Assembly (NCBI RefSeq): GCF_000186885.1
Contig: NC_014972.1
Span: 2,790,001 to 2,822,000 of the forward strand
Length of the DNA: 32,000 bases
Reading direction: 5' to 3'
Source: Desulfobulbus propionicus DSM 2032
GTDB taxonomy: Bacteria > Desulfobacterota > Desulfobulbia > Desulfobulbales > Desulfobulbaceae
Part shown: positions 4,467 through 30,307 of the stretch, in pieces
How the letters are laid out: each line of letters begins with the position of its first letter
Position numbering within the stretch: position 1 is the stretch's first letter
Notes under the pieces: generated by a model
What the model was told of the DNA's origin: nothing
Seen by the model: only the letters and a program-made list of their open reading frames with translations
Databases searched by the model: none
Translations under genes and position numbers: made by a program

Positions 4467-5360
4467 TCAGGCCAGCCACGGCACCTTGAGCAGGTCGACC
4501 GCCTTGTAGTTGGTGTTGGAATCACCGCCGTTGATCAGCTGGGCCTCGATGATCTTCTTGGCCTTGCTGTAGTTGGACGGTCCAACCACCAGCAGGTTGG
4601 GCACCACGCCCAAGGGCTCACCCCAATCCTTCTTGAAGGCACCCATGGCGTCATAGGCGGCCTCGAAGTTGGTCGCATCCAGGGTGGCCTTGGACCCGAA
4701 GGCCATCTGCCAGAAACCGAAGCCGACGTTGCAGCGCGAGTCGACCCCGTAAAGGAAGGTCTTGCGCATGAACACGTTCTCATCGCGCTCCTGATTGAGC
4801 AGCACGAAGTTGGCCGCCTTGCGATCCTGGAAGATGATAGGTTTCAGGGGCCGGCGGGTATCGAGCAGGAACCAGGGGTTGCCCGATCCGGACTGGACGT
4901 TGGAGACCGAGGTGACGTTGCCATCCGCATCGAGCACCGGGTGATCCGAATCAAAGAAGTACTGGCCGTCATAACAGGGGGTGGCAAATCCCGCCGTCAT
5001 GAGGGCAAAGACCAGCTTGTCCGGATGGATCCGGGCCTCAAACCCCATGTTCTCCATCATGGGGGCGTAGATGCCGTACTGATCGTCTTCGATCCGGTCG
5101 CGATCCACGCCCACGGTCAACTCGAACGACTTGTTCTTGATCGAGTAGTCGTGCATGCTCAGGTTGTTGATGTGGCGATCGCCCACCCATTCCCGCATGC
5201 CCGGGATCTCGCCGATCCAACCGTAATCCTCGATCAGGGTGGTGGAGGGCACCCGGGTCGCCACCTGCTGCCATTGGGACTCGGCGTTGTCGAAGCCCCG
5301 CTGGTAGACCGCCTTGAAACCGCGATACATGCCGGCCAGGTTGCTGCTGTTAATGATCAT
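4467..5360 (-). CDS. Major head subunit, Mu gpT family
   Basis: 297 aa. The segment YGWIGEIPGMREWVGDRHINNLSMHDYSIKNKSFE closely parallels the Mu/FluMu gpT signature region. Confidence 0.9.
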   Translation of the reverse strand: MIINSSNLAGMYRGFKAVYQRGFDNAESQWQQVATRVPSTTLIEDYGWIGEIPGMREWVGDRHINNLSMHDYSIKNKSFELTVGVDRDRIEDDQYGIYAPMMENMGFEARIHPDKLVFALMTAGFATPCYDGQYFFDSDHPVLDADGNVTSVSNVQSGSGNPWFLLDTRRPLKPIIFQDRKAANFVLLNQERDENVFMRKTFLYGVDSRCNVGFGFWQMAFGSKATLDATNFEAAYDAMGAFKKDWGEPLGVVPNLLVVGPSNYSKAKKIIEAQLINGGDSNTNYKAVDLLKVPWLA

Positions 5361-8501: not shown

Positions 8502-8673
8502 GGTCGTGATACGGTTGTTCCCTGGCCAATCGCTCCAGTTCCCGCCAGTCGGCCGTCATTCGGGTCTCGGAAACCACAACCGGGCCTTCCTGGAAAAGCG
8601 GGCCGGCCAGGTACAGTCCCAAGATGACCGCCAGGAGCAGCAGGCCCGTCTGGATGCAACTCCAGGGGCTCAC
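8488..8673 (-). CDS. Possible small membrane protein (GTG start overlapping the portal stop)
   Basis: The GTG at 8673 overlaps the portal TGA as GTGA. The 61-aa frame VSPWSCIQTGLLLLAVILGLYLAGPLF... has one hydrophobic helix and fills the otherwise empty portal-gpF gap. Confidence 0.3.
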   Translation of the reverse strand: MSPWSCIQTGLLLLAVILGLYLAGPLFQEGPVVVSETRMTADWRELERLAREQPYHDHGQR

Positions 8674-10235
8674 TCGGCCACCTCCAGCCGTCCGGCCAGG
8701 TTGCCGAGCAGATCCAGCCGGGCCATGATCTCGCCGAGCTGTTCGGGTTGGCTGGTTGCCAGGAGATCGATCAGCTGCTCGCGGAACTGCTCCAGGCTCT
8801 CGGCCTGTTCCAGCAGGGACTCGGCCCGGGTGATCAGGTTGGCGGCCGGACCGGCCGACTCGGTCTTGACCCATTGCAGCAGGGTCGACTCCAAAGGGTT
8901 CTTATCCAACTCCCGGCTGTTCTTGGCGGCCTCAACCGGTTCCGGTTGAACGGGTTGTTTATCAGCAGTCTCAACGGCTGCCGGTTGTTCCGCTGGTGGG
9001 GGAGTTCCTAAACAGTCCGCGCCCTCTTCCGGATCCGGCAGCCCCAGCTTGTCGCGGACCACCGATTGCTCGACCTTCAGCCCCAGGGGCACCAGCTTCT
9101 CCAGGGCGGTGACCAGCAGCTGGGTATCCTCCGGCTCCACCGCCTTGATGAGCAGCTCCGGATACTGTTCCTGCGGTCCCCAGTTGAGATCGATGAACGG
9201 CCGGACCAGGTCGCGGTTGATGGTCTCGGAGAGCTGGGTGGCATCATCGTCGCGGATATCTTCCCGCACCTCAGCCTGGGCATCCTCGTTGCCCAGTTTG
9301 CCGGCTGTCCCTTGCGTGGTGGCGGTCTGGCCGAGGATCCCCCGGCTGACCTGGGCATCGAGCCAGTCCGCCAGCTTGTTGAACAGTTCGTGGCCACCGG
9401 TGACCTTGGCGCTCTCGACAAACTCGATCAGCATCGACTCCGGAATCACTGCCGCCGCATCGCTGCCCAGGTTGGCCACCGCAGCTTTCAGGATAGCGAT
9501 GTCTTCCTTGGACGCACCGGGCTGATACTTGCCGACCCGCAGCGGCATGCCGAAGACCTCGGCAAAGGCTAGCCAGTCCTTCACCGTGTAGTTCTTGCAC
9601 ATCCACGCCCAGGCAGCCACGCGGGCGATCCCGCCGCGAATGGGGATGCCGGTCTTCAAATGCGGCAAGTGGCAGATGAACTTGAACGGGGCCAGATCGA
9701 TACCTTCCGCCACATTCTGCTCATCAAGCAGTCTGAGGCGCCTTCGGGAAGCCCGATCAAAGGTGAAAAAGCGGGGATCGCGCCACTCATACCCCACCGG
9801 CCGCCATCTGGCGCCACGCGACCAGAGGATCTCGCACACCGAGAACCCCTTGCCGATGGCATCGAGCAGGTCCTTGAGCAAGCCACGGAAACCGGCCTGT
9901 TTCACAAGTGCCCGCACCTCGTCGGCCAACTGCACATCCTGGGGTTCATCACTGGCTGCTTCCACCGTGATCGGCAAGGAGGCCACGGCCAACTTGCGTT
10001 TGGAAATCTCGCAGCGGTAGTGCAGATCCCGCTCCTCCATCTCCTCGGCAAGCGTCAGGTACTCGCTGATCTCGCCTTCGGCGGCCCGTTGCAATAGCCC
10101 AGCCAACCGGTACGGGGTCAGGCCCGAGGCCACGGTCACGTCCCAGACGCTGCGGATCCCGGCCAGGCTGGGTGCGGCCAGTTCCTGGGTCAGGGTTCGG
10201 GTTGTGACCGGTCGGTTAAGATAGTCGTAGATCAC
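8670..10235 (-). CDS. Portal protein, Mu gpH/gp29 (DUF935) family
   Basis: 521 aa, directly downstream of the large terminase. The N-terminal region LTPYRLAGLLQRAAEGEISEYLTLAEEMEERDLHY and overall length fit DUF935 portals. Confidence 0.85.
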   Translation of the reverse strand: MIYDYLNRPVTTRTLTQELAAPSLAGIRSVWDVTVASGLTPYRLAGLLQRAAEGEISEYLTLAEEMEERDLHYRCEISKRKLAVASLPITVEAASDEPQDVQLADEVRALVKQAGFRGLLKDLLDAIGKGFSVCEILWSRGARWRPVGYEWRDPRFFTFDRASRRRLRLLDEQNVAEGIDLAPFKFICHLPHLKTGIPIRGGIARVAAWAWMCKNYTVKDWLAFAEVFGMPLRVGKYQPGASKEDIAILKAAVANLGSDAAAVIPESMLIEFVESAKVTGGHELFNKLADWLDAQVSRGILGQTATTQGTAGKLGNEDAQAEVREDIRDDDATQLSETINRDLVRPFIDLNWGPQEQYPELLIKAVEPEDTQLLVTALEKLVPLGLKVEQSVVRDKLGLPDPEEGADCLGTPPPAEQPAAVETADKQPVQPEPVEAAKNSRELDKNPLESTLLQWVKTESAGPAANLITRAESLLEQAESLEQFREQLIDLLATSQPEQLGEIMARLDLLGNLAGRLEVAE

Positions 10236-13493: not shown

Positions 13494-14039
13494 TTAGGTG
13501 CGACCGAACACGCCGGGAAAGTCCTCGTGCTGGCTCCAGGCCTTGTAATGAAGGTATTGCTCGCCGTTCTGACAGCGAACCAGGAGGCGCGGCGAACGTT
13601 TGCGCAGGCACATCGTGACCGCCTGCAGGGTTTTGGGACCCATGATGCCGTCCACCACCAGGTCCGGGTAGAACCGTTCTCGTGCGTTGAGGGCGTTCAA
13701 GGCCCGCTGGAGGAACTTGGTCCCGTTGCCCGGTCCGCAGTTGACCGAAGCTTCGAACAACTCCTCGGCAACTTCCGGACTGACCACGTCGATGTGGTCA
13801 CAGCTCAGCGGCTGCCAGAACTCGGTGCGGTAGAACTCACGCACCAGATCGGTCAGGCCAGGCGCCAAAGACAAGGCGTGGCCCGCATGCAGGCAAGCGT
13901 CGATAATCGGCCAGCCCTCCCAAAGAGGATGCTTGTTGCGGGCGATGCCCATGTAGGTCTCACCACCCTTGTCCTTGGGGTTGTTGCTGTAGCCGCCCTC
14001 GTGTTGCAGGGTGGCGGCAAATGCGCGAGCAAAGCTCAT
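13494..14039 (-). CDS. Endolysin, glycoside hydrolase family 108 with C-terminal peptidoglycan-binding region
   Basis: 181 aa. The N-terminal FAATLQHEGGYSNNPKDKGGETYMGI is the GH108 signature, and the region around GIMGPKTLQA resembles PG_binding_3. Confidence 0.85.
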   Translation of the reverse strand: MSFARAFAATLQHEGGYSNNPKDKGGETYMGIARNKHPLWEGWPIIDACLHAGHALSLAPGLTDLVREFYRTEFWQPLSCDHIDVVSPEVAEELFEASVNCGPGNGTKFLQRALNALNARERFYPDLVVDGIMGPKTLQAVTMCLRKRSPRLLVRCQNGEQYLHYKAWSQHEDFPGVFGRT

Positions 14040-14376
14040 GGGGCCTCATCTGGCATGGGGTATCTTTCCTTTAAGGAAGAGGCAGGCCGTGTGGCCCGCC
14101 CCTATCCATGGGCAAGGAGAATGCATGGCGTCCAAACCATGTTGACGAGGGAACTATAGAGGAGAGGGCAGACAGCAATAAGTCTGCGCTGGAGCAGTGG
14201 TGAAAGTGCAAAATTTTATGATCACCACCCGGTCCGGGGTGATCCGGTTGGTGAAAGTTGACTAGGAAGATGTGGAAGACAGGAGGGGGGACCGGGGCAT
14301 ACGATTGAGGAAGTGCTGATGCAGCGCTATTCGCTCAATTTCGAGGTTGACTTAAAAACGGAGGGCTCAAGTTGAG

Positions 14377-14398
14377 CAATAGGTAAATTTACCTATTG
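14377..14398. repeat. 22-bp perfect palindrome CAATAGGTAAATTTACCTATTG upstream of the island operon
   Basis: Read directly from the sequence. It lies about 115 bp upstream of the methyltransferase ATG and is preceded by a second small palindrome, CTCAAGTTGAG (14366-14376). Confidence 0.8.
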
Positions 14399-14513
14399 AG
14401 ATTCAACGGTTGTCAACGACACTTTCAAGTGGTAGACAATCTCGACCTCATGCCTTTTTTCATGAAAATCAAGAAAACCGTGGTGCGCAGGACTGTTCGA
14501 GTACAACACAGAG

Positions 14514-16697
14514 ATGAATGGCAATGCATCAACAAGCCAAGAAAATGGAACGGCGATGACTCAAAAGCTGCAAGAAATAATTAAAGACAGTGCATACAAC
14601 CTTAGTCAATTCAAGCCTGAACAGATTTCAGCCTTGGAATCCGCAATAAGCATCAAGGGTTCCGGCACAAAAGCAGCTCCCTATGTAACGTGCCTGATGC
14701 GAGGCAAACCGATCAAGCTCACTCCGGAAGAAACCATTCGGCAACTCTACCTTATGGTACTCCGTGACGATCTGGGATACCCCGTGAGTCGCATGGCCGT
14801 CGAATATGAGGTGACTTTTGGGCGTGAGAAGAAACGTGCCGACATCTGCATCTTTGACAAGGACAAGACCAACACGCCATACATCCTGGTCGAACTAAAA
14901 AAACCGAAACTCAAGGACGGCAAGGAACAGCTCAAGAGCTACTGCAACGCCACCGGTGCACCGATGGGCGTATGGACCAACGGACAGCAGATTTCTTACT
15001 ACCATCGCAGGGACCCAAACTATTTTGAAGACATCCCCGCTATCCCTTCGGCCCATGAAAAACTGTCGGACATCCTCTCCGAGCGCTGGACGATCGATGA
15101 CCTGATTAAACTCGACAAACTGGTCAACGAGAAAAAGTCCCTGAAAGACCTGATCCTCGAAATGGAAGACGAGGTGCTCGCCAACGCGGGCGTGGACGTG
15201 TTCGAGGAGATGTTCAAGCTCATTTTCACCAAACTCTATGATGAGTTGGAAGGCGGGCGCGACAAGAAGCGCCATCTAGTTTTCAAAAACTACGGCGACA
15301 CCGAAACCGAACTCAAGGCCAAGATTCAGGATCTGTTTGACAAGGCTTGCGCCAAATGGGAAGGCGTTTTCCCGGAGAACGTTAAGATAGACCTCACCCC
15401 GAGCCACCTGGCAGTGTGCGTTTCTTCCCTGGAAAAGGTCAAGCTGTTCAATTCCAACCTGGAAGTAGTCGATGAGGCGTTCGAATACCTCATCAACAAG
15501 TCCAGCAAGGGTGAAAAGGGTCAATATTTCACTCCGCGCTATGTCATCGACATGTGTGTGAAGATGCTCAATCCGCAAGCGCATGAAACCCTGATCGATA
15601 CGGCCGCCGGGAGTTGTGGCTTTCCTGTACATGGTATCTTTTATGTCTGGGAACAGATCATGAAAGAAGAAGGGCTCGCAAAGAGTCATCTCTTCACCAC
15701 GGATAAAAAGCCCGCGCGTTGTGAGGACTATGTCCGCGACAAGGTTTTTGCCATCGACTTTGATGAAAAAGCCGTACGTGTTGGCCGGACACTCAATCTG
15801 ATCGCCGGTGACGGCCAGACCAACGTGCTGCACCTCAACACCCTGGACTACGAACGCTGGGACGAAAAAACCAGCGACGAAACCTGGATAGATATTTACG
15901 GCGAAGGCTGGAAGAAACTGCGCAAGCTACGGCTTGATAAAACCAGCAACCGGGATTTCGGTTTTGATGTACTGATGGCCAACCCGCCCTTTGCCGGTGA
16001 TATCAAAGAAACCAGAATCCTGGCCAAGTACGACCTGGCCCGCTCGGTACGCCTCGACAAAATCGGCAAGGTAGACCCAAAGGACAAGAACATCGTCACC
16101 GCGCATGATCGTGCCCCCAGTTTCACCGAAGCCCTGCATGCCAGCCATGAGGTCATTTATCAAATGGCCGATGGTACCTACCGCAAGGTCAAGGTCAAGA
16201 ACCAGAACAAGGTTGGCCGCGATATCTTGTTCATCGAGCGGAATCTCAATTTTCTCAAACCTGGCGGCCGCATGGCGGTGGTACTGCCACAGGGCCGTTT
16301 CAACAACGCCTCGGACAAGGATTTACGGGAATACCTTGCAGCACACTGCCGCATCCTCGCCGTAGTCGGCCTGCACGGTAATGTGTTTAAGCCACACACC
16401 GGCACCAAGACCAGCGTACTTTTCGTGCAAAAATGGAATGACGATTCAAAAGCCGGTCCGCTTTGTCCGAGGGTGGATGACTATCCGATCTTCTTCGCCA
16501 CCATGCGCGAGCCCAGCAAGGATAATTCCGGTGATAAAATCTACCGGCAAGGGCCGGACGGCTCGCCGCTGCTCGACAGCCACGGACACCTCATCGTCAA
16601 GCATGATCTATTTAATCACGATGGCTTGACCGAGGATGGTATCGCCGATGCCTTTATCGAGTTTGCCAAGAAAGAGGGCCTCAGTTTTTTTCTCTAA
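14514..16697 (+). CDS. Fusion of an HsdR-N-terminal-type PD-(D/E)xK domain with a gamma-class N6-adenine DNA methyltransferase (BcgI-A-like / HsdM-like)
   Basis: 727 aa. The N-terminal segment VEYEVTFGREKKRADICIFDKDKTNTPYILVELKKP...GVWTNGQQISYY fits the E...D...ExK nuclease-fold pattern. The methyltransferase motifs are GQYFTPRYV, motif I LIDTAAGSCGF and motif IV NPPF (VLMANPPFAG). An alternative start is the ATG at 14556. Confidence 0.85.
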   Translation: MNGNASTSQENGTAMTQKLQEIIKDSAYNLSQFKPEQISALESAISIKGSGTKAAPYVTCLMRGKPIKLTPEETIRQLYLMVLRDDLGYPVSRMAVEYEVTFGREKKRADICIFDKDKTNTPYILVELKKPKLKDGKEQLKSYCNATGAPMGVWTNGQQISYYHRRDPNYFEDIPAIPSAHEKLSDILSERWTIDDLIKLDKLVNEKKSLKDLILEMEDEVLANAGVDVFEEMFKLIFTKLYDELEGGRDKKRHLVFKNYGDTETELKAKIQDLFDKACAKWEGVFPENVKIDLTPSHLAVCVSSLEKVKLFNSNLEVVDEAFEYLINKSSKGEKGQYFTPRYVIDMCVKMLNPQAHETLIDTAAGSCGFPVHGIFYVWEQIMKEEGLAKSHLFTTDKKPARCEDYVRDKVFAIDFDEKAVRVGRTLNLIAGDGQTNVLHLNTLDYERWDEKTSDETWIDIYGEGWKKLRKLRLDKTSNRDFGFDVLMANPPFAGDIKETRILAKYDLARSVRLDKIGKVDPKDKNIVTAHDRAPSFTEALHASHEVIYQMADGTYRKVKVKNQNKVGRDILFIERNLNFLKPGGRMAVVLPQGRFNNASDKDLREYLAAHCRILAVVGLHGNVFKPHTGTKTSVLFVQKWNDDSKAGPLCPRVDDYPIFFATMREPSKDNSGDKIYRQGPDGSPLLDSHGHLIVKHDLFNHDGLTEDGIADAFIEFAKKEGLSFFL

Positions 16698-16729
16698 GCC
16701 CCTTCGACAAGGCGCAGTATGAGCGCCTG

Positions 16730-18175
16730 TTGGAGGGGCTTGAAGTGAGCGAAATTCAGTTTTCCGAAGCGCTATCCGGAACAAAAACGTCACGCATCGA
16801 CCCTGAGTATTTCAATAGAGCAGCCACCAAAACCCTGAAAATGATAAAGGGGACATTGCGGCTAGGGGATCTTGTTCAAGATGGTTATCGGGTCGTCTAT
16901 GAAACCACAGAGGCCATCGATCGGGAAGAAGGGGAACGCCTAGGCCTGCCCTATTTTCTGCAAAGCGCTGACATATCGACACCTTTCATCAATGCCAAGT
17001 CTATGGTTTGTGTAGCCCTTTCGGATTGGGAACGCTACCCAAAGGGGCGCATTATTCCCGGGGAGCTGCTTATCGAAGTCAAAGGCAAGGCAGAGAAGAT
17101 CGCTTTGGTTCCCGATGATTTTCCCAAAAATACGCTTGTGACAGGGACCTGTTTCAAGCTTACAACCAAGCAACGCGTCGATCAGTATTTCTTAGCAAGT
17201 TATCTTACTTGCCGTTACGGCCAAGCCCTTAAAGATCGGCTAAAAAGCAACTTGCTTGTAAGCTATATCGCAAAAGATGATCTTTACCGACTTCCCATCC
17301 CAGACCTCTCCCCTGAGATTAAGCTCAAGATTAAGTTTTGTTTTGACCGGTGCTTCGAGGCGCATGAAGAAGCTCAATCTTTAATGGACGAGGCCGAAAC
17401 CACGCTCCTTCGCGCACTCGGCTTAGAAAATTGGCAAGCTCCAGAATCTTTGAGCTATGTCCGCAACAGCCGCGATGCATTTGCTGCCGGGCGACTGGAT
17501 GCAGAGCATTTTCAAGAGAAGTATTATGCGGCAAAAACAGCCTTGATTAAAGCAGGCGCCAAGTGTTTTATCCCTTTCCCTGAACTGTTGGAGTCTTTGA
17601 CAAACGGGCATACCCCTCTACGTCACGATTTGAGCAAGGGTGAAGTTCCGTTCCTATGTGCAGAACACGTTAACGATTTCAATATCAAATTTGACAGTGA
17701 GAAACGTATCCTTCTTGAGCACCATGGAAAAGAACTAGCACGCACAGCCGTTCACGATGGTGATGTATTGCTCACTATCAAAGGAAGAATTGGAAATGCG
17801 GCTATCGCAGAAAACGTACCGGGAGCAGTCAACATCAATCAAGACGTTGCCCTACTTCGCCTCAATGAAACATTGCCTATTTGGTATATTGTTGCCTACT
17901 TGAATTGCCGTTTTGGAAAATTACAATCTGAAAAAATGGCAACAGGAGCCATTAATCCCTTCCTTGGTCTTTTTAGTGTCCGTCGGTTTGAAGTCCCTGA
18001 ATTTGAATATGAGACTATGCAAGAGATTGCCGACAGTACCCAATCGCTCGTTAAGTCGTCCCGCTCTGCTTGGCAAAAGGCATCTCAGTTTCTCGACACG
18101 GCTAAGCGTGCTATTGAAATTGCCATCGAAGAAAACGAAACAGCCGCGATGGCATATCTGGAGGGGGCTGTATGA
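16730..18175 (+). CDS. hsdS: Restriction-modification specificity subunit (HsdS-like, two target-recognition domains)
   Basis: 481 aa. The conserved spacer motif occurs twice, as SRIDPEYF near the N-terminus and GRLDAEHF mid-protein, each followed by a variable TRD. It has a TTG start, and the frame is open from 16616, so the exact start is uncertain. Confidence 0.8.
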   Translation: MEGLEVSEIQFSEALSGTKTSRIDPEYFNRAATKTLKMIKGTLRLGDLVQDGYRVVYETTEAIDREEGERLGLPYFLQSADISTPFINAKSMVCVALSDWERYPKGRIIPGELLIEVKGKAEKIALVPDDFPKNTLVTGTCFKLTTKQRVDQYFLASYLTCRYGQALKDRLKSNLLVSYIAKDDLYRLPIPDLSPEIKLKIKFCFDRCFEAHEEAQSLMDEAETTLLRALGLENWQAPESLSYVRNSRDAFAAGRLDAEHFQEKYYAAKTALIKAGAKCFIPFPELLESLTNGHTPLRHDLSKGEVPFLCAEHVNDFNIKFDSEKRILLEHHGKELARTAVHDGDVLLTIKGRIGNAAIAENVPGAVNINQDVALLRLNETLPIWYIVAYLNCRFGKLQSEKMATGAINPFLGLFSVRRFEVPEFEYETMQEIADSTQSLVKSSRSAWQKASQFLDTAKRAIEIAIEENETAAMAYLEGAV

Positions 18176-18747
18176 GCGGAGACTACTATAAAGAGTGGCG
18201 TGCAAAGGCCGAGGTTGATTATTTCCCGCAATTGGTAGTTTTATGGCTTTCAACCAATTCGTGGTACCGATCTCACTACTCCGAAATCACAACCAAGCGC
18301 GACCGTGACTTTCTCAACAAGCTTCGAGACGATCACAGCACCAGGAACAAGCTTTTTACGAGGTTTGATAGGCTGCTCGGGTCTGCTGGCACCAAAGATC
18401 ATGCCGAACTGATCAGTGTCATCGAAGCGCTCTCATTCGCTTTAAATAGCGCTTTGCTCCTTTGGGAAGAGAATAAGGGCGACAGCGTAATCACCTTCGA
18501 AAACTGCCTGCTAGCGCTGAATCCCAAAATGTACGGCAGTCTCGTTGTCAAGAAGCGAGCGCCAGGTATCCGCATCAGCGACACACTCAAGCTTACCGAT
18601 GACAAATCTTCTCTTTTTAATGGGCTGCTTGAGATAATTTACCAGATCCGCTGCCACCTGGTTCATGGCCAACTGGAACCAAATAACGAGAACCATGAAG
18701 TGGTGAAGCATTGTTATCGTTTGCTGCATCTACTGATGCAGATTTAA
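18172..18747 (+). CDS. Hypothetical 191-aa protein with a C-terminal Rx4H motif (possible HEPN-type RNase)
   Basis: Its ATG overlaps the hsdS TGA as ATGA. The protein is predicted helical. The motif YQIRCHLVHG places R160 and H165 in Rx4H spacing near the C-terminus, followed by Gly as in many HEPN families. Confidence 0.4.
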   Translation: MSGDYYKEWRAKAEVDYFPQLVVLWLSTNSWYRSHYSEITTKRDRDFLNKLRDDHSTRNKLFTRFDRLLGSAGTKDHAELISVIEALSFALNSALLLWEENKGDSVITFENCLLALNPKMYGSLVVKKRAPGIRISDTLKLTDDKSSLFNGLLEIIYQIRCHLVHGQLEPNNENHEVVKHCYRLLHLLMQI

Positions 18748-18807
18748 AACGGAAAAGATTCTGACTGCATTTCTCCACCCCCAAATCCTTCTATCAACGA
18801 GCAAGAA

Positions 18808-19710
18808 ATGGAAATAACCGTTCAGGCTTTTGAACTGAAAACAGGAAAAGGAATTTCTCTCCAGCATTTTGGTGACCACCTCAAAACTCTGTCGGTGTCG
18901 TCTGTGAAGAACAGGTACATCTATGTTGATCGGACAGATGGATGGTGGCACGGTTTGCTGTTGACGGCTCGAAATATAAAAGCCTTTGCACGGATGGAAC
19001 GACAGGGGGGACGGGTTATTTTAAGCCCGGAATCTATTAAAAATGGGGAACTTGCACATTTTAATTTTTTCTTAGTGCACGAAAAGTTTGGGAGAGGATT
19101 ATATCAGTATTATCACGGATCATCCTCTGTCCATGGATTTGCACAAGTATTGAAGCAACATTATAATGGATTTAAAAAGCAGTGTATCGAGAGAGATTGC
19201 CTTGCTGAAAATATTTTGGCAGATTCACCGCCGAAGAAAATAACTAAACGTTATGCCGGTTATCTGGTTTACCAGCTTGTTTTACGCAGAAAATCGTTCG
19301 AAGCTCTCATGAAAGAGCTTAGAGGAGTAAGAAAAGTCTCACTTCAGTTTGTTGAATATGAACCTCATCAGAGATTGTTTAGATCGCTTGCAGGCAAAGC
19401 GAAGGCAGTGCAACACAACCTTACATTTGGCAATAAATATGACGGATCCATCAGAGATGATCTAGTAGAGTTGGCAAACACCGATATTTTGAAGACATTG
19501 AGCGGAGTAGGTATTGACGATAACGATGTCGAACGGCGTTTTCGTTTACTGAATGAGCCTGAATCGCTTGGCAATTTCGATTTTAACGATATTGTCCTTT
19601 CAACTGAGTTCGACTCGGAAGATGTTCATTCGAGTCTTGAGCGAGCGCCTGTCCTCTCAAAAATGAAAACGATAGCCGAATCTGACAATTGGTTGATGGG
19701 TAAAATATAA
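18808..19710 (+). CDS. Hypothetical 300-aa soluble protein, no family recognised
   Basis: Clean ORF with an ATG start in a low-GC context. It has no TM segments and no catalytic motif that I can name. Confidence 0.6.
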   Translation: MEITVQAFELKTGKGISLQHFGDHLKTLSVSSVKNRYIYVDRTDGWWHGLLLTARNIKAFARMERQGGRVILSPESIKNGELAHFNFFLVHEKFGRGLYQYYHGSSSVHGFAQVLKQHYNGFKKQCIERDCLAENILADSPPKKITKRYAGYLVYQLVLRRKSFEALMKELRGVRKVSLQFVEYEPHQRLFRSLAGKAKAVQHNLTFGNKYDGSIRDDLVELANTDILKTLSGVGIDDNDVERRFRLLNEPESLGNFDFNDIVLSTEFDSEDVHSSLERAPVLSKMKTIAESDNWLMGKI

Positions 19711-19711
19711 A

Positions 19712-20236
19712 ATGGTCACTTTTATTCCATACATAGCGACTATTTTTGTATCCATTTGTTGTTGGTTTGCCCTGTTCAATTTACCTGATACGAATCGATT
19801 TTCTTGCCTCTACGATACAAAACTTCAGCTTGTTTTCTTTACTGCATTTCTCACTGTTGGCAGTTTTCTTCTGGCAATGAAGGCTTTTATCCTGATTCGG
19901 ATCCGGGATGATATTTATCGCCACGAAAAGTATAAAGAACGATATCTACTACAGTATGATAATCAGTATAAGGGAGATTATTATAAAGGGTTACTCGATC
20001 TGGGCAATTTGCTTGTTGTCAGTGTTGCCGGAGCCTTCTTTACGTCAATCGCTCAAATAACTATCGGATTCAGCAAAATATACCCTATAAAATGCATTGC
20101 TCCGTCACTTGTTGGCGGGATGCTCGTCCTCGTGTTGTTTGACTGGCTTTTTGTTTATCTCAATTTACGAGACTGGTTCGAATTTATCGAATCCGACATA
20201 GAGAAAGAATTGAAGGAAAAGAAAGAAACTCTTTGA
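19712..20236 (+). CDS. Hypothetical 174-aa integral membrane protein (four predicted TM helices)
   Basis: It starts 1 nt after the upstream stop. Hydrophobic helices lie at about aa 3-23, 38-62, 96-119 and 128-152. A Tyr/Lys-rich central loop (IYRHEKYKERYLLQYDNQYKGDYYKG) and a charged C-terminal helix complete the protein. Confidence 0.6.
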   Translation: MVTFIPYIATIFVSICCWFALFNLPDTNRFSCLYDTKLQLVFFTAFLTVGSFLLAMKAFILIRIRDDIYRHEKYKERYLLQYDNQYKGDYYKGLLDLGNLLVVSVAGAFFTSIAQITIGFSKIYPIKCIAPSLVGGMLVLVLFDWLFVYLNLRDWFEFIESDIEKELKEKKETL

Positions 20237-20354
20237 GGAATGTTCATTACGCAGAGCCGTAGTTCAATTTCACACCTCACCTAAAACATTAACAATTGTG
20301 CGCTCAAACTCTGCTCCACTGATTCAGAGCGCCAATACCTTCAGCCTTGATTCC

Positions 20355-20675
20355 TCAAAACAACCGCAACTGCCGTCCATCCGACCGCCCCAATATATTC
20401 CAGATCTGCCGTTCCTGGAGCCCATACTTGCGGGCCAACTCAACCCCCGAATACTTACCCGTATCATAGTCGCTGCGAATACACCGGTCCCGCCAACTAC
20501 GAGTCCAGGTCTTCCAGCCGTAGATTCGCACCGGGGTGCCGTCAAAGCGTTGGGCCAACTTGAGGGCGTTGCCAATGCCGATCAGCTCGGCAATGGTCCG
20601 CATGTCGCCGTTCAATTCCTCCAGCCGGGGCCAGGCATCCGGCGGCAGATCGATGATTTCGTGGGGCCTGCTCAC
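20355..20675 (-). CDS. mor: Mor-family middle/late transcription activator
   Basis: The segment IAELIGIGNALKLAQRFDGTPVRIY...RDRCIRSDYDTGKYSGVELARKYGLQERQIWNIL matches the Mor/C family. I favour the GTG at 20675, which overlaps the upstream TGA as GTGA. The ORF-track start at 20756 would overlap gemA by 85 nt. Confidence 0.75.
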   Translation of the reverse strand: MSRPHEIIDLPPDAWPRLEELNGDMRTIAELIGIGNALKLAQRFDGTPVRIYGWKTWTRSWRDRCIRSDYDTGKYSGVELARKYGLQERQIWNILGRSDGRQLRLF

Positions 20676-21130
20676 TTCTTTTGCGTCCCTTGCGTCTTCA
20701 ACCGATGCTCCAGATCGGTGATCAGGATATGCAGAGCCTTGCTGTCCTCGAGCCACTCAAACCGATCCACGCCGAACTGCTTTTTCACCCTGGCGTGGAT
20801 TTTGTTGATGTCGTAGCCCAAGGCGTGCCACAAAGCCAGCACCTTGCGTTGCTGCTTTGCCGCTGGGCCGGGCTTGATTTCCAGATACTGGCCATCGGTT
20901 TTTCGTTGTTGCTTTTGCCCATCAAAGCGTGGCTGCCAGCCCTTGGCTTTGAATAGATTGATCAGATCCCTGGCTTGCCGCTCGTTCAGTTCCTTGGCCG
21001 AGTCCACCTGAAAATAGTGATGAAGAATATCGCGGTAGGCTTCGTCGGTCAGGGCCAGTTCCTTCTTGGCAATGTGGATCCGGGCCAATGCACTGTTACT
21101 TGGCGTCATGTGGCTCTCCATACTGGGCAA
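20672..21130 (-). CDS. gemA: GemA / Mu gp16-like regulatory protein (DUF1018)
   Basis: 152 aa. The segment ALARIHIAKKELALTDEAYRDILHHYFQVDSAKELNERQARDLINLFKAKGW fits the DUF1018 pattern. The true start may be the internal Met at 21109. Confidence 0.7.
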   Translation of the reverse strand: MPSMESHMTPSNSALARIHIAKKELALTDEAYRDILHHYFQVDSAKELNERQARDLINLFKAKGWQPRFDGQKQQRKTDGQYLEIKPGPAAKQQRKVLALWHALGYDINKIHARVKKQFGVDRFEWLEDSKALHILITDLEHRLKTQGTQKK

Positions 21131-21629
21131 GGTATTTACGCATGATCTCGCTCATGCCTTCATCTGTTGGCTGCCGGCACACCCTGTGGCTTCCATCGAC
21201 CTCTTCTCTCCGCACCTGCTGCTCGTTCCGGGCATCGGCCTGGTCGGCCATTTGATACACAATGGTGCGAAGATAGTTGTGATTCTTCATCGGCAAGGTC
21301 AGGCTGGCGGCCTGCTCGAGCATCCGCTCCATGCCCAGCACCCATAACGATGGCGGACAAGGCCGATCAACCTTGCCCTGTTGCGAGACAAAACCTTTGC
21401 CGACCAACGCCAGCAATTCCCTGGTCAACCGCTCGCTTTTCGAGGGTTGCAGAGTGCAGCCGGAGGCCGGACGGAACAGGGAGAGATAGCGCAGGTAGGG
21501 TTTCTGCACCTCATGGGGCAGATCGGCAAAAAGGGCCAGGAAAGGGCCGAACTGTGCATCGTCCAGAAAGCAGGTAATCGGTGCCTTGTAGCCGCACCGG
21601 TGGCATCGTCCGTCATGGGGCATGGTCAT
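21096..21629 (-). CDS. Hypothetical early protein with an N-terminal CxxC
   Basis: 177-aa ORF in the semi-essential early region. CHRCGYKAPITC lies near the N-terminus. Confidence 0.5.
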   Translation of the reverse strand: MTMPHDGRCHRCGYKAPITCFLDDAQFGPFLALFADLPHEVQKPYLRYLSLFRPASGCTLQPSKSERLTRELLALVGKGFVSQQGKVDRPCPPSLWVLGMERMLEQAASLTLPMKNHNYLRTIVYQMADQADARNEQQVRREEVDGSHRVCRQPTDEGMSEIMRKYLAQYGEPHDAK

Positions 21630-21674
21630 AATTTATTATGCTGCTCATCAGACCCGGAGCGCAACCTCCGGATG

Positions 21675-21708
21675 ATCCCGGCCAGTGGCCGGGATTTCGC
21701 ATTTTTTC
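21675..21708 (+). terminator. GC-rich hairpin ATCCCGGCC-AGT-GGCCGGGAT followed by TTCGCATTTTTT (terminator-like only in the plus-strand sense)
   Basis: Perfect 9-bp stem with a 3-nt loop read from the sequence. The T-run is on the plus strand, antisense to the early operon. A second hairpin, CCGGAG-CGCAAC-CTCCGG, lies at 21655-21671. Confidence 0.4.
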
Positions 21709-22543
21709 ACGCAATCCCAGAAAAATCCAAGTTCACCTGCCGGTACTCGCCCTTTTCATCGCGCTCATACACCCGGTAATAGGTGCAGGATCCGGTCACC
21801 GTGATCGCGTCCCCGATGGCCTCCATGGCCTTGATCCAGGTGGGGTGCTTGATATCCAGCTTGCGCAACCCGAGGATCCGCTTGGTGTTGATCTTGCCCT
21901 TTTTGTCGACCTGAAAGGCAGCTTCGATGAGGGTGCGCACCTCAGAACCCGAGTCCTTGGTCCACTCGCGGAGACACTCGTCGATCAGGGCCTTGGCGGC
22001 CTGAAGCCGTTCATCGAAATCCAGCCGCTCGGATACGTCCCGCAGCACCTTGTAACGGCCGTCAAAGGAAACCAGGTTGATGTTGCCCTTGACCCCGCCG
22101 AGGGTGACCCCGTACTTCTCGGCGGAAAGGTCGAGAAAAGCCTCCAGGTCGGTGGCCAGCTGTTTCTTGAATGTGGTTACCGTGGCGGCCAGATCCTTGG
22201 CCTTGTGCACCACCTCCTTGACGAACTCGTCCCGGGCCAGGTCGATCTCCTTGATCGACTCGATCGGCACCAGGTGGCCCACCGCGTTCCGCATGTAGCC
22301 GTCGGGTATTGCCTGCATGGTCTTTCCTCCGTAAACAGTTAGGACTTTTTCGCTGATCGCCTCCAGGGATCCGCTGTAATTATTGTTCAGCACCTGGGAG
22401 ATGGCGGCCGGGCTATACCCCAGCTTGCCGGCCACCGATGCCTGGCTGCCTTCAATCTGGACTGCTCTACGCAGCAAGCTGATCCAGTCCATGGCCTTTG
22501 CTCTTGGTCTGGGTTCTAAAGGTATGCATTTCCCGGTAGTCAT
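21707..22543 (-). CDS. DUF3164-family Mu-like early protein, in frame with an upstream HTH segment
   Basis: The DUF3164 core begins MQAIPDGYMRNAVGHLVPIESIKEIDLARDEFV at the ATG at 22318, preceded by a GGAGGA ribosome-binding site. The same frame stays open upstream through the HTH-like MDWISLLRRAVQIEGSQASVAGKLGYSPAAISQVL (ATG at 22492). The true start is therefore ambiguous. Confidence 0.65.
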   Translation of the reverse strand: MTTGKCIPLEPRPRAKAMDWISLLRRAVQIEGSQASVAGKLGYSPAAISQVLNNNYSGSLEAISEKVLTVYGGKTMQAIPDGYMRNAVGHLVPIESIKEIDLARDEFVKEVVHKAKDLAATVTTFKKQLATDLEAFLDLSAEKYGVTLGGVKGNINLVSFDGRYKVLRDVSERLDFDERLQAAKALIDECLREWTKDSGSEVRTLIEAAFQVDKKGKINTKRILGLRKLDIKHPTWIKAMEAIGDAITVTGSCTYYRVYERDEKGEYRQVNLDFSGIA

Positions 22544-23413: not shown

Positions 23414-24145
23414 TCACCCCTGCAAGCCGCACTTGCAGGCAATGGCGGCCAGTTCGGCGTCCACCTCGCCGGTCCGGCGCAAGCTGGTGGCGGCATGGGC
23501 TAGGTTGATGGTGTCGCGGCGGACGATCCGCAGATCGCCGCCGGCGGCCCGGTGCATGATCTCGGCCGCCGGGGTGCTCAGCTGCAGTCCGGTGCACTGG
23601 CTGACATACATGACCACATCCGAAGGGCTCACCGGCTCGAACTCCATGGCCCGATAGGTGCGCGACCAGACTCTCCGGTTTTGTTTCATCAGGTGCGGCA
23701 ACTCCTCTTCACCGATCAGGACCACGATGCCGCCGGTGATCTTGACCAGGTCGCGGATGATCTCGAGAAACTTCTGGCCGAACCGCTCGATTTCGTCGAT
23801 GAATACCGGTTGGTTGTTCGTGGTCATGGCCTCGATGATGGCATCGAAGCACCGGCCCCTGCGGCTGGGGATCTGGCGGATACCGAACTCCCGGCAGAGC
23901 TTCTGCAAAAAATCCAGCTCCGACCAGATCGACACCGTCTCGATATAGACACAGCCGTTTCGGGCCGCCCAGGTCTGGACAGTGCGGGTCTTACCCCGTC
24001 CGGCCCGGCCCCAGATGCAGCCCAACCGCTCGTCGCCTTCGCCTGCCCCGCCCTTGCCGATCATCAACCCCTGCATCAGGGTGTCGAACGATCGCACGTT
24101 TTTGGTCTGGACAAAAACCGGTTTGAATTTTACTGTTTCAGCCAT
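23414..24145 (-). CDS. MuB-like AAA+ ATPase (transposition target-DNA activator)
   Basis: 243 aa with Walker A GRAGRGKT and Walker B VFIDEIE. It lies directly downstream of the transposase, as in Mu. Confidence 0.8.
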   Translation of the reverse strand: MAETVKFKPVFVQTKNVRSFDTLMQGLMIGKGGAGEGDERLGCIWGRAGRGKTRTVQTWAARNGCVYIETVSIWSELDFLQKLCREFGIRQIPSRRGRCFDAIIEAMTTNNQPVFIDEIERFGQKFLEIIRDLVKITGGIVVLIGEEELPHLMKQNRRVWSRTYRAMEFEPVSPSDVVMYVSQCTGLQLSTPAAEIMHRAAGGDLRIVRRDTINLAHAATSLRRTGEVDAELAAIACKCGLQG

Positions 24146-27661: not shown

Positions 27662-27740
27662 GCGGACGTTGTAAAAACATCCGGCCTCTGATACTGTCCA
27701 TTTATGGAACTTTCGTTTCCTTATCGGTCGTGATAGTCGC

Positions 27741-27773
27741 CCATTTTTGGCAAATTGTCAATGCCAAAAATGG
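27741..27773. promoter_or_regulatory. Perfect 12-bp inverted repeat CCATTTTTGGCA-N9-TGCCAAAAATGG in the divergent repressor/early control region
   Basis: Read directly from the sequence. It lies between the early-operon start and the repressor start. Confidence 0.6.
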
Positions 27774-27774
27774 C

Positions 27775-27905
27775 GCACAGCTTTATTTTGGGCTGATACG
27801 CGGGTTTGCTTCACAAAAAATACGATAAATCAGCGTTATAAAGGGAGCGGTGCGTACAGAAAAAACGCACAGCTTTCTGCACAGCTTTCCAAAATTAAGC
27901 TGTGC
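27775..27905. promoter_or_regulatory. Operator-like repeats: GCACAGCTTT three times direct (27775, 27867, 27879) plus an inverted AAGCTGTGC (27897-27905)
   Basis: Read directly from the sequence. The last direct copy and the inverted copy form a 9-bp dyad with a 9-nt spacer, about 30 bp upstream of the repressor ATG. Confidence 0.6.
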
Positions 27906-27934
27906 ACCGGAATTGATCATTCAAAGGTGGGCGA

Positions 27935-28681
27935 ATGAGTCTTGGAAACAGAATTAAATCCGTCAGAGGAACCCTTTCCCAAAAAGAGTTTAGCGATGTG
28001 TGCAAGGTTGGGATTTCTACGCTTAGGCGTTATGAGTCAGGAGTAAACCCTCCTGACTCCGATTTTTTATGCGCTATCGTTGATAATTATAATATCAACC
28101 CTATGTGGCTGTTGAGTGGTGAGGGGCCGATGTACCGAGAAAGAAACACGGATCCGCACGGTGCCAGTACTAATTCAACCAGCGCAAAGATACCGCAACG
28201 GCCTGTTTATATGGACGATAGCGGCCAAGTAGTCATCCCCCAATGGCAGAATCCCGATCCAGAGATGTTCGATTACATCCCTATGGCGGAAACGCAACTT
28301 TCCGCAGGGGGAGGAGCCTTTGTTATCTCGGAAGAGATCGAAGGATATTATGCATTTAGAAAAAGCTGGCTGAGCAGAGTCGCATCCAGCACCAAGAACT
28401 TGGTACTCATGCGGGTTCTCGGAGACTCGATGTCGCCAACCATTCAGGAAGACGACACAGTGATGATCGATATCGGGAAAAGATCGATAAAGGAGGGAAT
28501 GATCTACGCCATCCGCTTTGATTCCACAGTCATGATTAAGCGGTTGGCCTTTCGCCCTGGCGGGCGCATCATGATAATCTCAGACAATCGGCACGAATAC
28601 GAGCCTTACGAAGCCGACATGAGGGAACTGCACATCATCGGCCAGATCATTTTTTTCTGCCGAACCTTCGCCACCGAATAG
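27935..28681 (+). CDS. Prophage repressor: XRE-type HTH plus S24 (LexA/CI-like) autopeptidase domain
   Basis: 248 aa. The N-terminal HTH is LSQKEFSDVCKVGISTLRRYESG. The C-terminal domain has GDSMSPT (catalytic Ser) and MIKRL (Lys). The gene is divergent from the early operon. Confidence 0.85.
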   Translation: MSLGNRIKSVRGTLSQKEFSDVCKVGISTLRRYESGVNPPDSDFLCAIVDNYNINPMWLLSGEGPMYRERNTDPHGASTNSTSAKIPQRPVYMDDSGQVVIPQWQNPDPEMFDYIPMAETQLSAGGGAFVISEEIEGYYAFRKSWLSRVASSTKNLVLMRVLGDSMSPTIQEDDTVMIDIGKRSIKEGMIYAIRFDSTVMIKRLAFRPGGRIMIISDNRHEYEPYEADMRELHIIGQIIFFCRTFATE

Positions 28682-28954
28682 AGGTAGTTTCAGCCAGCAT
28701 TAACTTTCTCGCTCTTGATGCAAAATCCTGCCAATTTCACCCCAAAACCGAAAAGTTTCTTGTTTTAGAAATTTGTCCGCAAAATTTTTTCCAGACGTCC
28801 ACAAATGCCCATAGCGTTTGGAAAAAGTGCCATAAAAGTATCACCATTCCACGCTATTCAAAGTTTCTGGGTTTATGTGCCCCCCTATACCCCTATATGC
28901 AGAATCTCGCGCGAGTTTACAATATACGGGACAGGAGCGGGATAAATTGTCCTA

Positions 28955-28994
28955 GAAACAAAAAAGCCACTTAGCAAAAACTTGCTAAGTGGCT
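28955..28994 (-). terminator. Rho-independent terminator downstream of tRNA-Arg
   Basis: A 13-bp perfect stem (28965-28977 pairs with 28982-28994) with a 4-nt loop is followed on the minus strand by TTTTTTGTTTC. Confidence 0.65.
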
Positions 28995-29002
28995 GATATT
29001 AC

Positions 29003-29079
29003 TGGTGAACGAGGCGGGATTCGAACCCGCGACCTTTGGCTTCGGAGGCCAACACTCTATCCAGCTGAGCTACCCGTCC
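29003..29079 (-). tRNA. tRNA-Arg(CCG): tRNA-Arg, anticodon CCG, with encoded CCA
   Basis: I folded the 77-nt reverse complement by hand: GGACGGG-TA-GCTC-AGCTGGATA-GAGT-G-TTGGC-CTCCGAA-GCCAA-AGGTC-GCGGG-TTCGAAT-CCCGC-CTCGTTC-A-CCA. All four stems pair, with two G-U pairs in the acceptor stem. Confidence 0.9.
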
Positions 29080-29243
29080 GTAATATATTTATTTTATCAC
29101 AGTGGCTTAAAACACTTGGCGCACACCGGTGCTTTTTTACCAAAAAGAGCTCCCAATTACCACAAGTATTCTCACTTTCAGCCTTCTTTTCTCTCCAGAC
29201 GACCGCTGACGCGCAATCCTCTCGAACAGCGGCAGCACAGGGG

Positions 29244-30263
29244 TCACACCCTGTAATAACGTCGGTACCAATCAACGAAGTTTCTGATTCCCTGTTCAAT
29301 GGACGTGGACGGTTTGAAACCGACCGCTTGCACCAAGTCGGCCACATCGGCATAGGTTGCGGGAACATCCCCATCCTGGAGCGGAAGAAAATTCTTACGA
29401 GCCTTTTTTCCCAGGCAGTCTTCCAGCACTTCGATGTAGCGCATCAGCTTTTCCTTCTTGTTGTTGCCGATGTTATACACCCGCCAGGGGCAATAGCTGG
29501 TGGCGGCGTCCGGTTGGTCGCCACTCCATTGCGAATTGGCCGAGGCCACGTGGTCAATAACCCGCACCACCCCTTCGGCAATATCGTCGATGTAGGTGAA
29601 ATCCCGCTCCATGTTGCCGTTGTTGAACACATTGATCGGCCGGTCTTCGAGAATGGCCTTGGTAAAGAGAAACAAGGCCATATCCGGCCGGCCCCAAGGA
29701 CCATAGACAGTAAAAAAGCGCAGTCCCGTGGTCGGAATATGAAACAGATGGCTATAGGTATGGGCCATCAGTTCGTTGGCCTTTTTCGAGGCGGCATAGA
29801 GGGAAACCGGGTGATCGACATTGTCATGCACCGAAAAGGGCATGCGGGTGTTGGCGCCATAGACCGAACTGGAAGACGCATAGACCAAATGCTTGACGCC
29901 GGTGTGGCGGCATCCTTCAAGGATATTGACAAAACCGACCAGATTGGTGTCCACGTAAGAGTGGGGATTGATCAACGAATAGCGTACCCCGGCCTGGGCA
30001 GCCAGGTTGACCACCGCATCGAACTGTTCACGGGCAAACAGGGCCGCCGTCCGCTCCCGGTCGGCCATGTCAAACTCGACATGGTGGAAGGCGGCGAAAG
30101 CCTGCAACTCGGCCAAGCGGTCCCGTTTGAGTTGCGGATCGTAATAATCGTTGAGATTATCGAGCCCGACAACCGAGCGCCCTTCCGCCAACAGTCGAAG
30201 GGTCAAGGCGTGACCAATGAAGCCGGCCGCGCCGGTAACCAATATCTTGTGCAACGCTTTCAA
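29244..30263 (-). CDS. NAD-dependent nucleotide-sugar epimerase (UDP-glucuronate 4-epimerase-like, extended SDR)
   Basis: It shows the Rossmann motif VTGAAGFIG, the catalytic YAASK, and ends in DWYRRYY. The likely start is the TTG at 30263, 6 nt after AGGAGG; the ORF track extends to 30299. Confidence 0.85.
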
Positions 30264-30307
30264 TGCCTTCCTCCTCTCTTTCCCGCAGCCTGGAACCACG
30301 ATCCAGG

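Follow-up and report, generated by a model that had tools for sequence, protein, structure and literature searches.

Defence islands in prophages, restriction enzymes with coupled HEPN genes and RexAB-type systems are kinds of elements that are already known, and they are the ones with which we compare here a five-gene island (genes A to E) of a Mu-like prophage of Desulfobulbus propionicus DSM 2032. The island was studied within a window of 32,000 nucleotides (contig NC_014972.1, positions 2,790,001 to 2,822,000 of the forward strand), which is the whole stretch of DNA analysed and to which all coordinates refer unless another locus is named. Type IIB restriction-modification enzymes (BcgI, BsaXI) have the nuclease and a gamma-class N6-adenine methyltransferase in one polypeptide, use a separate two-domain specificity (S) subunit without helicase or translocase, and cut on both sides of a bipartite site. 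The predicted products of A and B share this arrangement of domains and subunits, and from their layout double-sided cutting might be expected of them too. In PrrC-EcoprrI and among the restriction-linked HEPN genes (ApeA/BMEI1217, AbiU2, AbiJ), a small gene with an Rx4-6H motif comes right after the S gene, and C has the same motif type and position. Sixteen HEPN clades are embedded in restriction-modification operons, and a back-up suicide in the manner of PrrC has been proposed (PMC3710099, Anantharaman et al. 2013).

RexAB-type systems (lambda RexA/RexB, RexABpp, and those of the actinophages Sbash, CarolAnn and Butters) are two-gene morons of temperate phages. A cytoplasmic protein of ~280-370 amino acids (aa) with the RexA/RdgC fold is followed by a small membrane protein with four transmembrane (TM) segments, a composition that D and E appear to share, and the pair is downstream of the immunity repressor and co-directional with it, as it is in some relatives of D and E. 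The hallmarks of these systems are a DNA-binding RexA dimer, a RexB-dependent depolarisation when RexA is in excess, and superinfection exclusion; by analogy, they may extend to D and E.

We consider it probable that the island is accessory cargo made of two defence cassettes: A-B-C, a restriction-modification cassette with a probable HEPN back-up, and D-E, a cassette of the RexAB type. The window contains most of one Mu-like prophage, on the minus strand, and the identifiable phage genes around the island are all on that strand (gpT, portal, GemA, DUF3164, MuB-like AAA, MuA). The gap between the endolysin and Mor genes is occupied by five co-directional open reading frames (ORFs) of the plus strand (14556-20236, from the ORF listing). 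The features of the island and its two flanks are the following:

13494-14039, minus strand: endolysin with Glyco_hydro_108 (GH108) and PG_binding_3 domains (Pfam); left flank, backbone and not cargo
14040-14210, no strand: backbone stretch upstream of the endolysin, GC 0.561
14211-14555, plus strand: non-coding cargo leader, GC 0.467
14556-16697 (ORF opens at 14514), plus strand: A, predicted nuclease-methyltransferase fusion, 713 aa
16730-18175, plus strand: B, predicted S subunit, 481 aa
18172-18747, plus strand: C, 191 aa, overlapping B by 4 bp
18748-18807, plus strand: inter-module junction of 60 bp (blastn)
18808-19710, plus strand: D, 300 aa
19712-20236, plus strand: E, 174 aa, beginning 1 bp after the end of D
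20237-20346, no strand: 3' cargo spacer, convergent with Mor; homology to related phages resumes at 20347-20355
20355-20756, minus strand: Mor-family middle/late activator (Pfam Mor, E 1.3e-7); right flank, backbone and not cargo

In the annotated genome, C is Despr_2452, D is 100% identical to Despr_2453, and E is Despr_2454. The composition of the island sets it apart from the prophage: GC content is 0.602 +/- 0.033 in the backbone (81 windows of 500 bp, none below 0.504) and 0.474 on average in the island, with a maximum of 0.542 (500-bp windows). There is also a step within the island, from 0.496 in A-C to 0.401 in D-E (~47-52% in each of the first three genes, 38-41% in the last two). An original prediction, made from the sequence of this DNA, had described a five-gene, AT-richer island on the opposite strand between endolysin and Mor, and the ORF listing, the Pfam matches and the GC content agree with it. 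Its GC figures per line were roughly right, except that the last two genes are not as low as the 33-38% it gave; its limits (14040-20354) also needed refinement, as homology with three related phages places those of the cargo at ~14211-20346 and leaves 14040-14210 to the backbone. Within this last stretch, a non-coding element of ~115-120 bp (14094-14210) recurs with 71-77% conservation in two of these phages (L021 and L022, blastn), even though the cargo next to it differs, and it is probably a late promoter region (dependent on the phage activators Mor/C). The adjoining leader (14211-14555) shows no homology to the related phages or to other copies of A-B-C and is presumed to be the putative promoter region of the cargo. 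Searches for direct or inverted repeats bounding the island gave short chance matches only, and a near-identity DNA search of the island against phage and E. coli collections gave no match.

The comparison set consisted of three Mu-like phages of IMG/VR (L021/L030, L022/L025 and L023/L033). They share the flanks of the island, with protein identities to the window of 74-83% for Mor, 72-75% for GemA and 66-76% for the endolysin, and their nucleotide homology to the window ends at the same two points (blastn). Between these flanks they carry 6.5 kb (L021), 4.1 kb (L022) and 6.2 kb (L023) of unrelated low-GC DNA, in which no homologue of A to E was found:

L021, 8388-14915: GHKL ATPase (HATPase_c_3), calcineurin-like phosphoesterase (Metallophos) and nSTAND3-like NTPase
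L022, 8410-12538: 945-aa PDC-M28B/C fusion (a PADLOC candidate system) and its 164-aa partner
L023, 8376-14529: Type II methyltransferase, LmuB-like ABC/SMC ATPase, two unknowns and a ClpX-zinc-finger protein

Since the same flanks hold differing, low-GC and defence-like cargo, the mor-lysis junction is, on this comparison of loci, a variable slot that gathers defence-type genes in this lineage. The block had been predicted to be cargo rather than core, and a survey of the junction in related Mu-like phages had been suggested; the survey bears the prediction out, with alternative defence-like cargo in all three phages. Like the slot described here, the defence hot-spots known from temperate phages and their satellites, as well as the lambdoid Q-S moron site, have conserved flanks, interchangeable low-GC defence-like cargo and an opposite-strand orientation. 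Rousset et al. 2022 are said to have described such defence hot-spots in P2/P4 phages and satellites. What sets the present slot apart is its location, at the mor-lysis junction of a transposable, Mu-like phage, and our literature search found no description of this junction as a hot-spot. The alternative cargos of L021-L023 are themselves mostly uncharacterised.

The island is itself composite. A-B-C is seen elsewhere without D-E, and D-E is seen elsewhere without A-B-C. The trio occurs in an island of Burkholderiales beside RhuM and an AEP-helicase (L008/9), in an integrase island of Vibrio beside McrBC and Kiwa (L010/11), at the repressor end of another Mu-like prophage (L012), and on a chromosome beside an Mrr-type nuclease (L111). 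In these other copies the genes overlap, and identities to the genes of the window are 83-88% for A and 67-83% for C. Because blastn homology to other copies of A-B-C stops at 18745 and homology to other copies of D-E begins at 18806, the island is best described, from these alignments, as two independently mobile modules joined in the 60-bp spacer. The original prediction of two stacked acquisitions at the GC step is in line with both the separate distributions and the break of homology in 18748-18807.

The first module starts with two genes whose assignment to restriction-modification, already predicted, is supported by Pfam and PADLOC hits for A and by Type I specificity profiles for B. In A, Pfam identifies HSDR_N_2 (104.6 bits, residues 71-178), N6_Mtase (92.6 bits) and Eco57I (35.5 bits). 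The N-terminus is a PD-(D/E)xK nuclease domain with the triad D96...E113-x-K115, which is invariant in four homologues from distant hosts, and it is followed by a gamma-class N6-adenine methyltransferase with an NPPF motif and an Eco57I-like C-terminal part; the match to the REBASE-derived PADLOC model MTase_I reaches 1141 bits. The start codon is likely the ATG at 14556 (M15 of the ORF), which aligns with M1 of an 83%-identical homologue of Burkholderiales. The A homologues of Burkholderiales, Vibrio and L012 have 784 aa, with an insert of ~57-70 aa near the C-terminus (at 16546-16571 in the window, compared with 8225-8445 in L009) that is found neither here nor in L111 (both 713 aa). B, whose start could be off by a few codons, matches Type I S profiles from one end to the other (PADLOC Specificity_I, E 1e-31, residues 69-469). 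At the DNA level, only its conserved framework and ends match the other copies and the recognition domains have diverged, with the rest ~75-80% identical; as the match is confined to the conserved framework, the recognition domains appear to have been exchanged.

No helicase-type R gene was found in the island, nor beside the trio in the five other contexts, and the closest solved sequence to A is RM.BsaXI (8w0p, E 5e-18), ahead of the EcoKI M subunit. For these two reasons, A and B are best read, from their sequences, as a BcgI/BsaXI-like (Type IIB-like) restriction-modification enzyme that lacks a translocase. The match of A to BsaXI spans only ~80 methyltransferase residues, and the pair departs from Type IIB in that B is Type I-like in length (481 aa) and a conserved third gene, C, is added. 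We rejected an assignment to Type I restriction-modification, as HsdR with its SF2 helicase motor is missing; of HsdR, the island has just the N-terminal nuclease domain, joined to the methyltransferase in A. An assignment to MADS (mad1-8) was rejected as well: the closest families of A and B in NCBIfam and PADLOC are MAD2 (methyltransferase) and MAD5 (S subunit), but the NCBIfam scores are below the equivalog cut-offs (313 bits against 720 for MAD2, 99.7 against 400 for MAD5) and the other six mad genes are missing from the island.

C is, as judged from the compared loci, obligatory as third gene of the restriction-modification module: it follows A and B in the five other contexts, with the same 4-bp overlap with B, and its 169 homologues are all of ~191 aa and 67-83% identical. 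The motif R160-C-x-L-V-H165-G has invariant R160 and H165 in 30 sequences (67-100% identity). The AlphaFold2 (AF2) model is all-helical, with a predicted local distance difference test (pLDDT) of 68 and a predicted template modelling score (pTM) of 0.70. In it, the penultimate helix (145-164) ends with the motif, after which a loop runs to the last helix (172-190), and a low-confidence insert (94-144) is placed between the preceding helices. In HEPN RNases, the catalytic Rx4-6H motif ends the penultimate helix and a disordered insert between the preceding helices is typical (PMC3710099). Given the invariant Rx4H motif and its modelled position, which resembles that in HEPN proteins, C is a probable, not a confirmed, HEPN-type RNase. 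It differs from PrrC and RloC in having no ABC-ATPase domain, and from the known restriction-linked HEPN genes in that its membership comes from the motif, the helix position and a UniProt name, with no profile or fold hit; that name ('Apea-like HEPN domain-containing protein', for Despr_2452) was not reproduced here by profile or fold search.

Two other explanations of the trio must be weighed. The better of them, which we still find unlikely, is that A-B-C is a single three-component system, a reduced relative of MADS in which C is needed for restriction itself, for instance as an effector or activator recruited by the A/B complex to unmodified DNA. A and B are indeed nearest to MAD2 and MAD5, the MADS methyltransferase and S subunit work with further effectors, and C accompanies A and B in every copy, as well conserved as A itself. 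On the other hand, the distance from the MADS cut-offs is large, six mad genes are not in the island, and A already has an intact nuclease motif. A slightly less likely explanation is that A and B provide the phage's own DNA modification (self-protection like Mu Mom, or an epigenetic role), the nuclease-like domain being non-catalytic and C a regulator. Methyltransferases are often carried by phages, the alternative cargo of L023 also begins with one, PADLOC labels the family of A simply as Type I methyltransferase, and C has no verified nuclease fold. Yet the D...ExK triad is invariant in distant hosts, the trio also occurs in non-phage islands beside McrBC, Mrr and RhuM, the S recognition domains have diverged as expected for a switching of specificity in an arms race, and the solved enzyme nearest to A is a genuine restriction enzyme. 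We thus retain for A-B-C the reading of a restriction-modification cassette with a probable HEPN back-up.

The second module is nearly invisible to profile searches. D has no usable hit in Pfam, NCBIfam or PADLOC (none in Pfam at E<=0.1), does not match the RexA families (PF15969/phrog_12654), and maps to a different PHROG, phrog_2802 (E 5e-17), which has no assigned function. It has 34 close relatives in an index of 5.8 billion proteins, and a profile search of 1.84 billion representatives extends the family to at least 640 clusters (50% identity), whose members are nearly always of ~300 aa and a single domain; a search for related loci with the narrow D alignment gave five loci. The AF2 model of D, built with 33 sequences, has a pLDDT of 80.7 and a pTM of 0.76. 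Foldseek searches of the PDB with this model return lambda RexA first (8twq, E 1.8e-7, prob 1.00), followed by CENP-N of human CCAN complexes (CHL4 being its yeast orthologue) and by E. coli RdgC (2owl). The structural relatives of RexA are RdgC and the kinetochore proteins IML3/CHL4 (PMC11077077), so the hit list recovers the whole RexA fold family. In RexA, the globular domain is in two parts (1-139 and 248-279), between which a dimerisation domain of four strands (143-234) is inserted. The secondary structure elements predicted for D come in an order that fits this split-domain layout: the N-terminal part is beta-rich and includes a long helix, the unit beta-alpha-beta-alpha-beta-alpha-beta-beta occupies the centre (154-247), and the C-terminus is made of helices. 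D is thus modelled as a cytoplasmic protein with the RexA/RdgC/CENP-N fold, and we propose, by analogy, that it is an infection sensor and a DNA-binding protein.

E has four hydrophobic segments in hydropathy plots (~4-22, 38-62, 95-119 and 125-150). A homologous partner of 168-182 aa, with three to four TM segments predicted by hydropathy, directly follows each D homologue for which the downstream sequence is readable (one copy is cut off at a contig end), and the pairing holds down to 24% identity among the D proteins. The partners have a family motif at the second segment (TM2), F-[TS]-[AG]-F-[LI]-[TS]-x-[GS]-[GS]-F, with a charged loop after it. By analogy with the RexAB pairs, we propose that E is a RexB-like effector. 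It differs from RexB (144 aa) by its 174 aa and the long charged loop between TM2 and TM3; neither D nor E has detectable sequence similarity to RexA or RexB, and D belongs to its own, much larger family than RexA does. Kiwa (KwaA/KwaB) was considered for the pair and rejected, with no Pfam or PADLOC hit, the opposite gene order and no Kiwa-annotated chain among the listed fold matches.

The genetic contexts of D-E add to the resemblance. At the end of a Mu-like prophage (L003) the pair starts 48 bp after an S24 repressor gene, and in L005-7 and L020, which are other prophages of the transposable type, an HTH_3 repressor precedes it on the same strand, with a few further morons in between. Since the pair is downstream of the repressor and co-directional with it, these placements correspond to the lambda cI-rexA-rexB arrangement. 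In these strings of morons, which end in D-E (7349-11421 in L005-L007, 3983-7426 in L020), the pair is preceded by genes for a TM2-domain protein and a PLDc_2 nuclease-like protein and by small ORFs, and L020 has a stand-alone HSDR_N_2 nuclease-like protein of 268 aa. In L016-L018, the neighbours of D-E are an HNH nuclease, BRCT proteins, a methyltransferase-Mrr fusion, HicAB and an integrase. The E. coli lambdoid phages mEp460_4F5 (L104, 3855-5340) and vB_EcoS-569R4 (L105, 3947-5342) carry a D homologue (phrog_2802, 23.6% identical) with a membrane partner, on the opposite strand, between the antiterminator Q and the holin and not beside the repressor, at a GC content of 31% as compared with ~50% in the flanks. 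The partner, unannotated in mEp460_4F5, has three clear hydrophobic segments and a probable fourth, judged by eye. This pair, annotated as two hypothetical proteins, is present at >=99% identity in 219 of the 5426 complete E. coli genomes (4%). Its placement mirrors that of D-E in the window, because both are antisense and between a late regulator and the lysis genes. Unlike lambda rexAB, the pair of the window follows a restriction-modification cassette in the interval from mor to the lysis genes. Taken by modelled fold, partner and context, D/E resembles lambda RexA/RexB.

RexA also has another role, and D/E could be a life-cycle module in which a RexA/RdgC-like DNA binder tunes the switch between lysogeny and lysis, or recombination, with E as membrane tether or antagonist. 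In lambda, RexA biases the switch to lytic growth and RexB antagonises it. A role of RexA in the bistable switch that does not depend on exclusion is documented (PMC11077077). The fold matches of D include RdgC, a 303-aa modulator of recombination, and the pair adjoins regulators (repressor, Q, Mor) in several phages. We nevertheless judge this explanation improbable, as the pair is a low-GC moron moving between Mu-like phages, lambdoid phages and a non-phage island, three close relatives complete their cycle without it, and elsewhere it is found among HicAB, HNH, methyltransferase-Mrr and PLD-nuclease genes. That the five genes are a conserved core of this phage lineage is refuted, despite one short metagenomic contig with the identical arrangement beside Mor/GemA (probably the same or a near-identical prophage), by the three related phages that all lack the five genes at the same junction, by the occurrence of both modules in unrelated contexts and by a GC content 10-20 points below that of the backbone.

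We return to the reading of two defence cassettes, for which we propose the following mechanism. The cassettes are arranged head to tail, on the strand opposite to the lytic transcription of the phage. To judge from their domains, A and B may form A2B-type complexes that would methylate the DNA of the host and prophage and cut unmodified incoming DNA. C would be bound and silenced by the A/B complex, and freed to degrade RNA once restriction is blocked or overwhelmed, which would provide a second, abortive line of defence analogous to that of PrrC-EcoprrI. Like RexA, RexApp and their counterparts in actinophages, D would be a dimeric, non-specific DNA binder that senses an infection-specific state of DNA or of a DNA-protein complex and switches on E. 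Fold, partner and context suggest that E would then depolarise or permeabilise the membrane, halt growth and abort the infection. D-E may be transcribed by read-through from the A-C operon, because it has no evident promoter of its own and is 60 bp behind C; the copies right behind repressor genes may be transcribed likewise. What the loci and models show directly is the gene content, the conservation of each module as a unit, the separate distribution of the two, the hot-spot and the fold match of D; the biochemical activities of A to E and the defence phenotype are inferred from domains, folds and contexts.

Several observations weigh against the reading of two defence cassettes. A scan of the cargo for promoters and terminators stayed at background level, with no consensus promoter and no convincing terminator. 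For C, none of the 30 members tested has a Pfam HEPN hit, even at E<=10, the model has no PDB fold match in Foldseek and its confidence is only moderate (pLDDT 68), the conserved R is followed by a Cys where a polar N/D/H is usual, and the sole PADLOC match (DzbB) is marginal (E 0.004). No PADLOC model hits D or E, and scans of C and E against Pfam and NCBIfam gave nothing usable either. The global TM-score between D and RexA is ~0.31, so that the fold match is weaker than its E-value suggests; this low score may reflect a differing hinge between the domains. At the sequence level, hhalign comparisons of the narrow and broad D alignments with lambda RexA or with a 29-member RexA alignment give probabilities of 1-1.6%, and a PDB profile search and a reciprocal hmmsearch were negative for the same link. 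E has no Pfam or PHROG hit to RexB (PF15968/phrog_14878), and hhalign gives a probability of 0.07%. In this prophage, D/E is away from the repressor gene (27935-28681), and we found no paper naming Despr_2450-2454. As to sequence similarity, HHpred also failed to link RexBpp of P. putida to RexB, yet RexBpp is experimentally validated, and this RexAB-type system (prophage P1), with equally weak similarity, was shown by experiment to defend (PMC12894663).

The original prediction had regarded the last three genes as defence-like add-ons and proposed profile and Foldseek searches on their products. These searches found a fold for D, none for C and no usable family hit for E. The expectation that all three are defence-like stands up well, with C obligate in the restriction-modification module and D/E resembling RexA/RexB. 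Two details have to be changed: C is part of the restriction-modification cassette and not a free add-on, and D can no longer be called unrecognisable, since Foldseek gives it the RexA/RdgC/CENP-N fold.

The rest of the window comprises further genes of the prophage and its right-hand junction with the host chromosome:

4467-5360, minus strand: major head protein gpT (Pfam)
8670-10235, minus strand: Mu portal (Pfam)
20672-21130, minus strand: GemA
21707-22543, minus strand: DUF3164
23414-24145, minus strand: MuB-like AAA
24211-26436, minus strand: MuA transposase
27935-28681, plus strand: HTH_3/Peptidase_S24 repressor, divergent
29003-29079, minus strand: host tRNA-Arg(CCG)
29244-30299, minus strand: host NAD-dependent epimerase

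The right end of the prophage is placed within 28681-29244, with the tRNA-Arg and the epimerase after the repressor and a host aldolase gene beyond the epimerase; GC content is low (0.47) throughout 27662-29243. An ORF of 480 aa on the plus strand (28989-30431) was considered as extra cargo behind the repressor and dismissed as spurious, the true gene being the host epimerase on the other strand. In the early operon of the phage, between the ORF 21096-21629 and the DUF3164 gene, there is a type II hammerhead ribozyme (21635-21702, minus strand; Rfam RF02276, 55.2 bits with a gathering score of 37, E 6e-9), 44 bp of which are 88.6% conserved in the related phage L021. Hammerheads cutting long prophage transcripts have been reported (PMC3088659).

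What is new in this locus is a large family of RexA-fold proteins with four-TM partners that annotation and defence-finder models have missed, a precisely conserved and unnamed restriction-plus-Rx4H trio, and a mor-lysis hot-spot in Mu-like phages. A stronger claim, which we put forward tentatively as a possibility, is that D/E is the first member of a large lineage of the RexAB type with no sequence relationship to lambda Rex and that A-B-C is an unnamed minimal restriction-HEPN system of three genes. If so, A-B-C would couple a translocase-less restriction enzyme obligatorily to a HEPN RNase, and this compact portable cassette, spread across Vibrio, Burkholderiales and Desulfobulbus, could serve to test the proposal of HEPN back-up. 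The mor-lysis junction would be an added site in transposable phages at which uncharacterised defence genes can be harvested. The RexAB-like systems described so far are only five, according to a 2026 paper (PMC12894663). A larger family that is visible by structure and has an E. coli representative would offer natural variants with which to address the trigger and mechanism of RexA, a 70-year-old puzzle, and cassettes of a Rex-like sensor and a membrane effector would be a general class of temperate-phage morons in Proteobacteria and Desulfobacterota, and not a curiosity of lambda.

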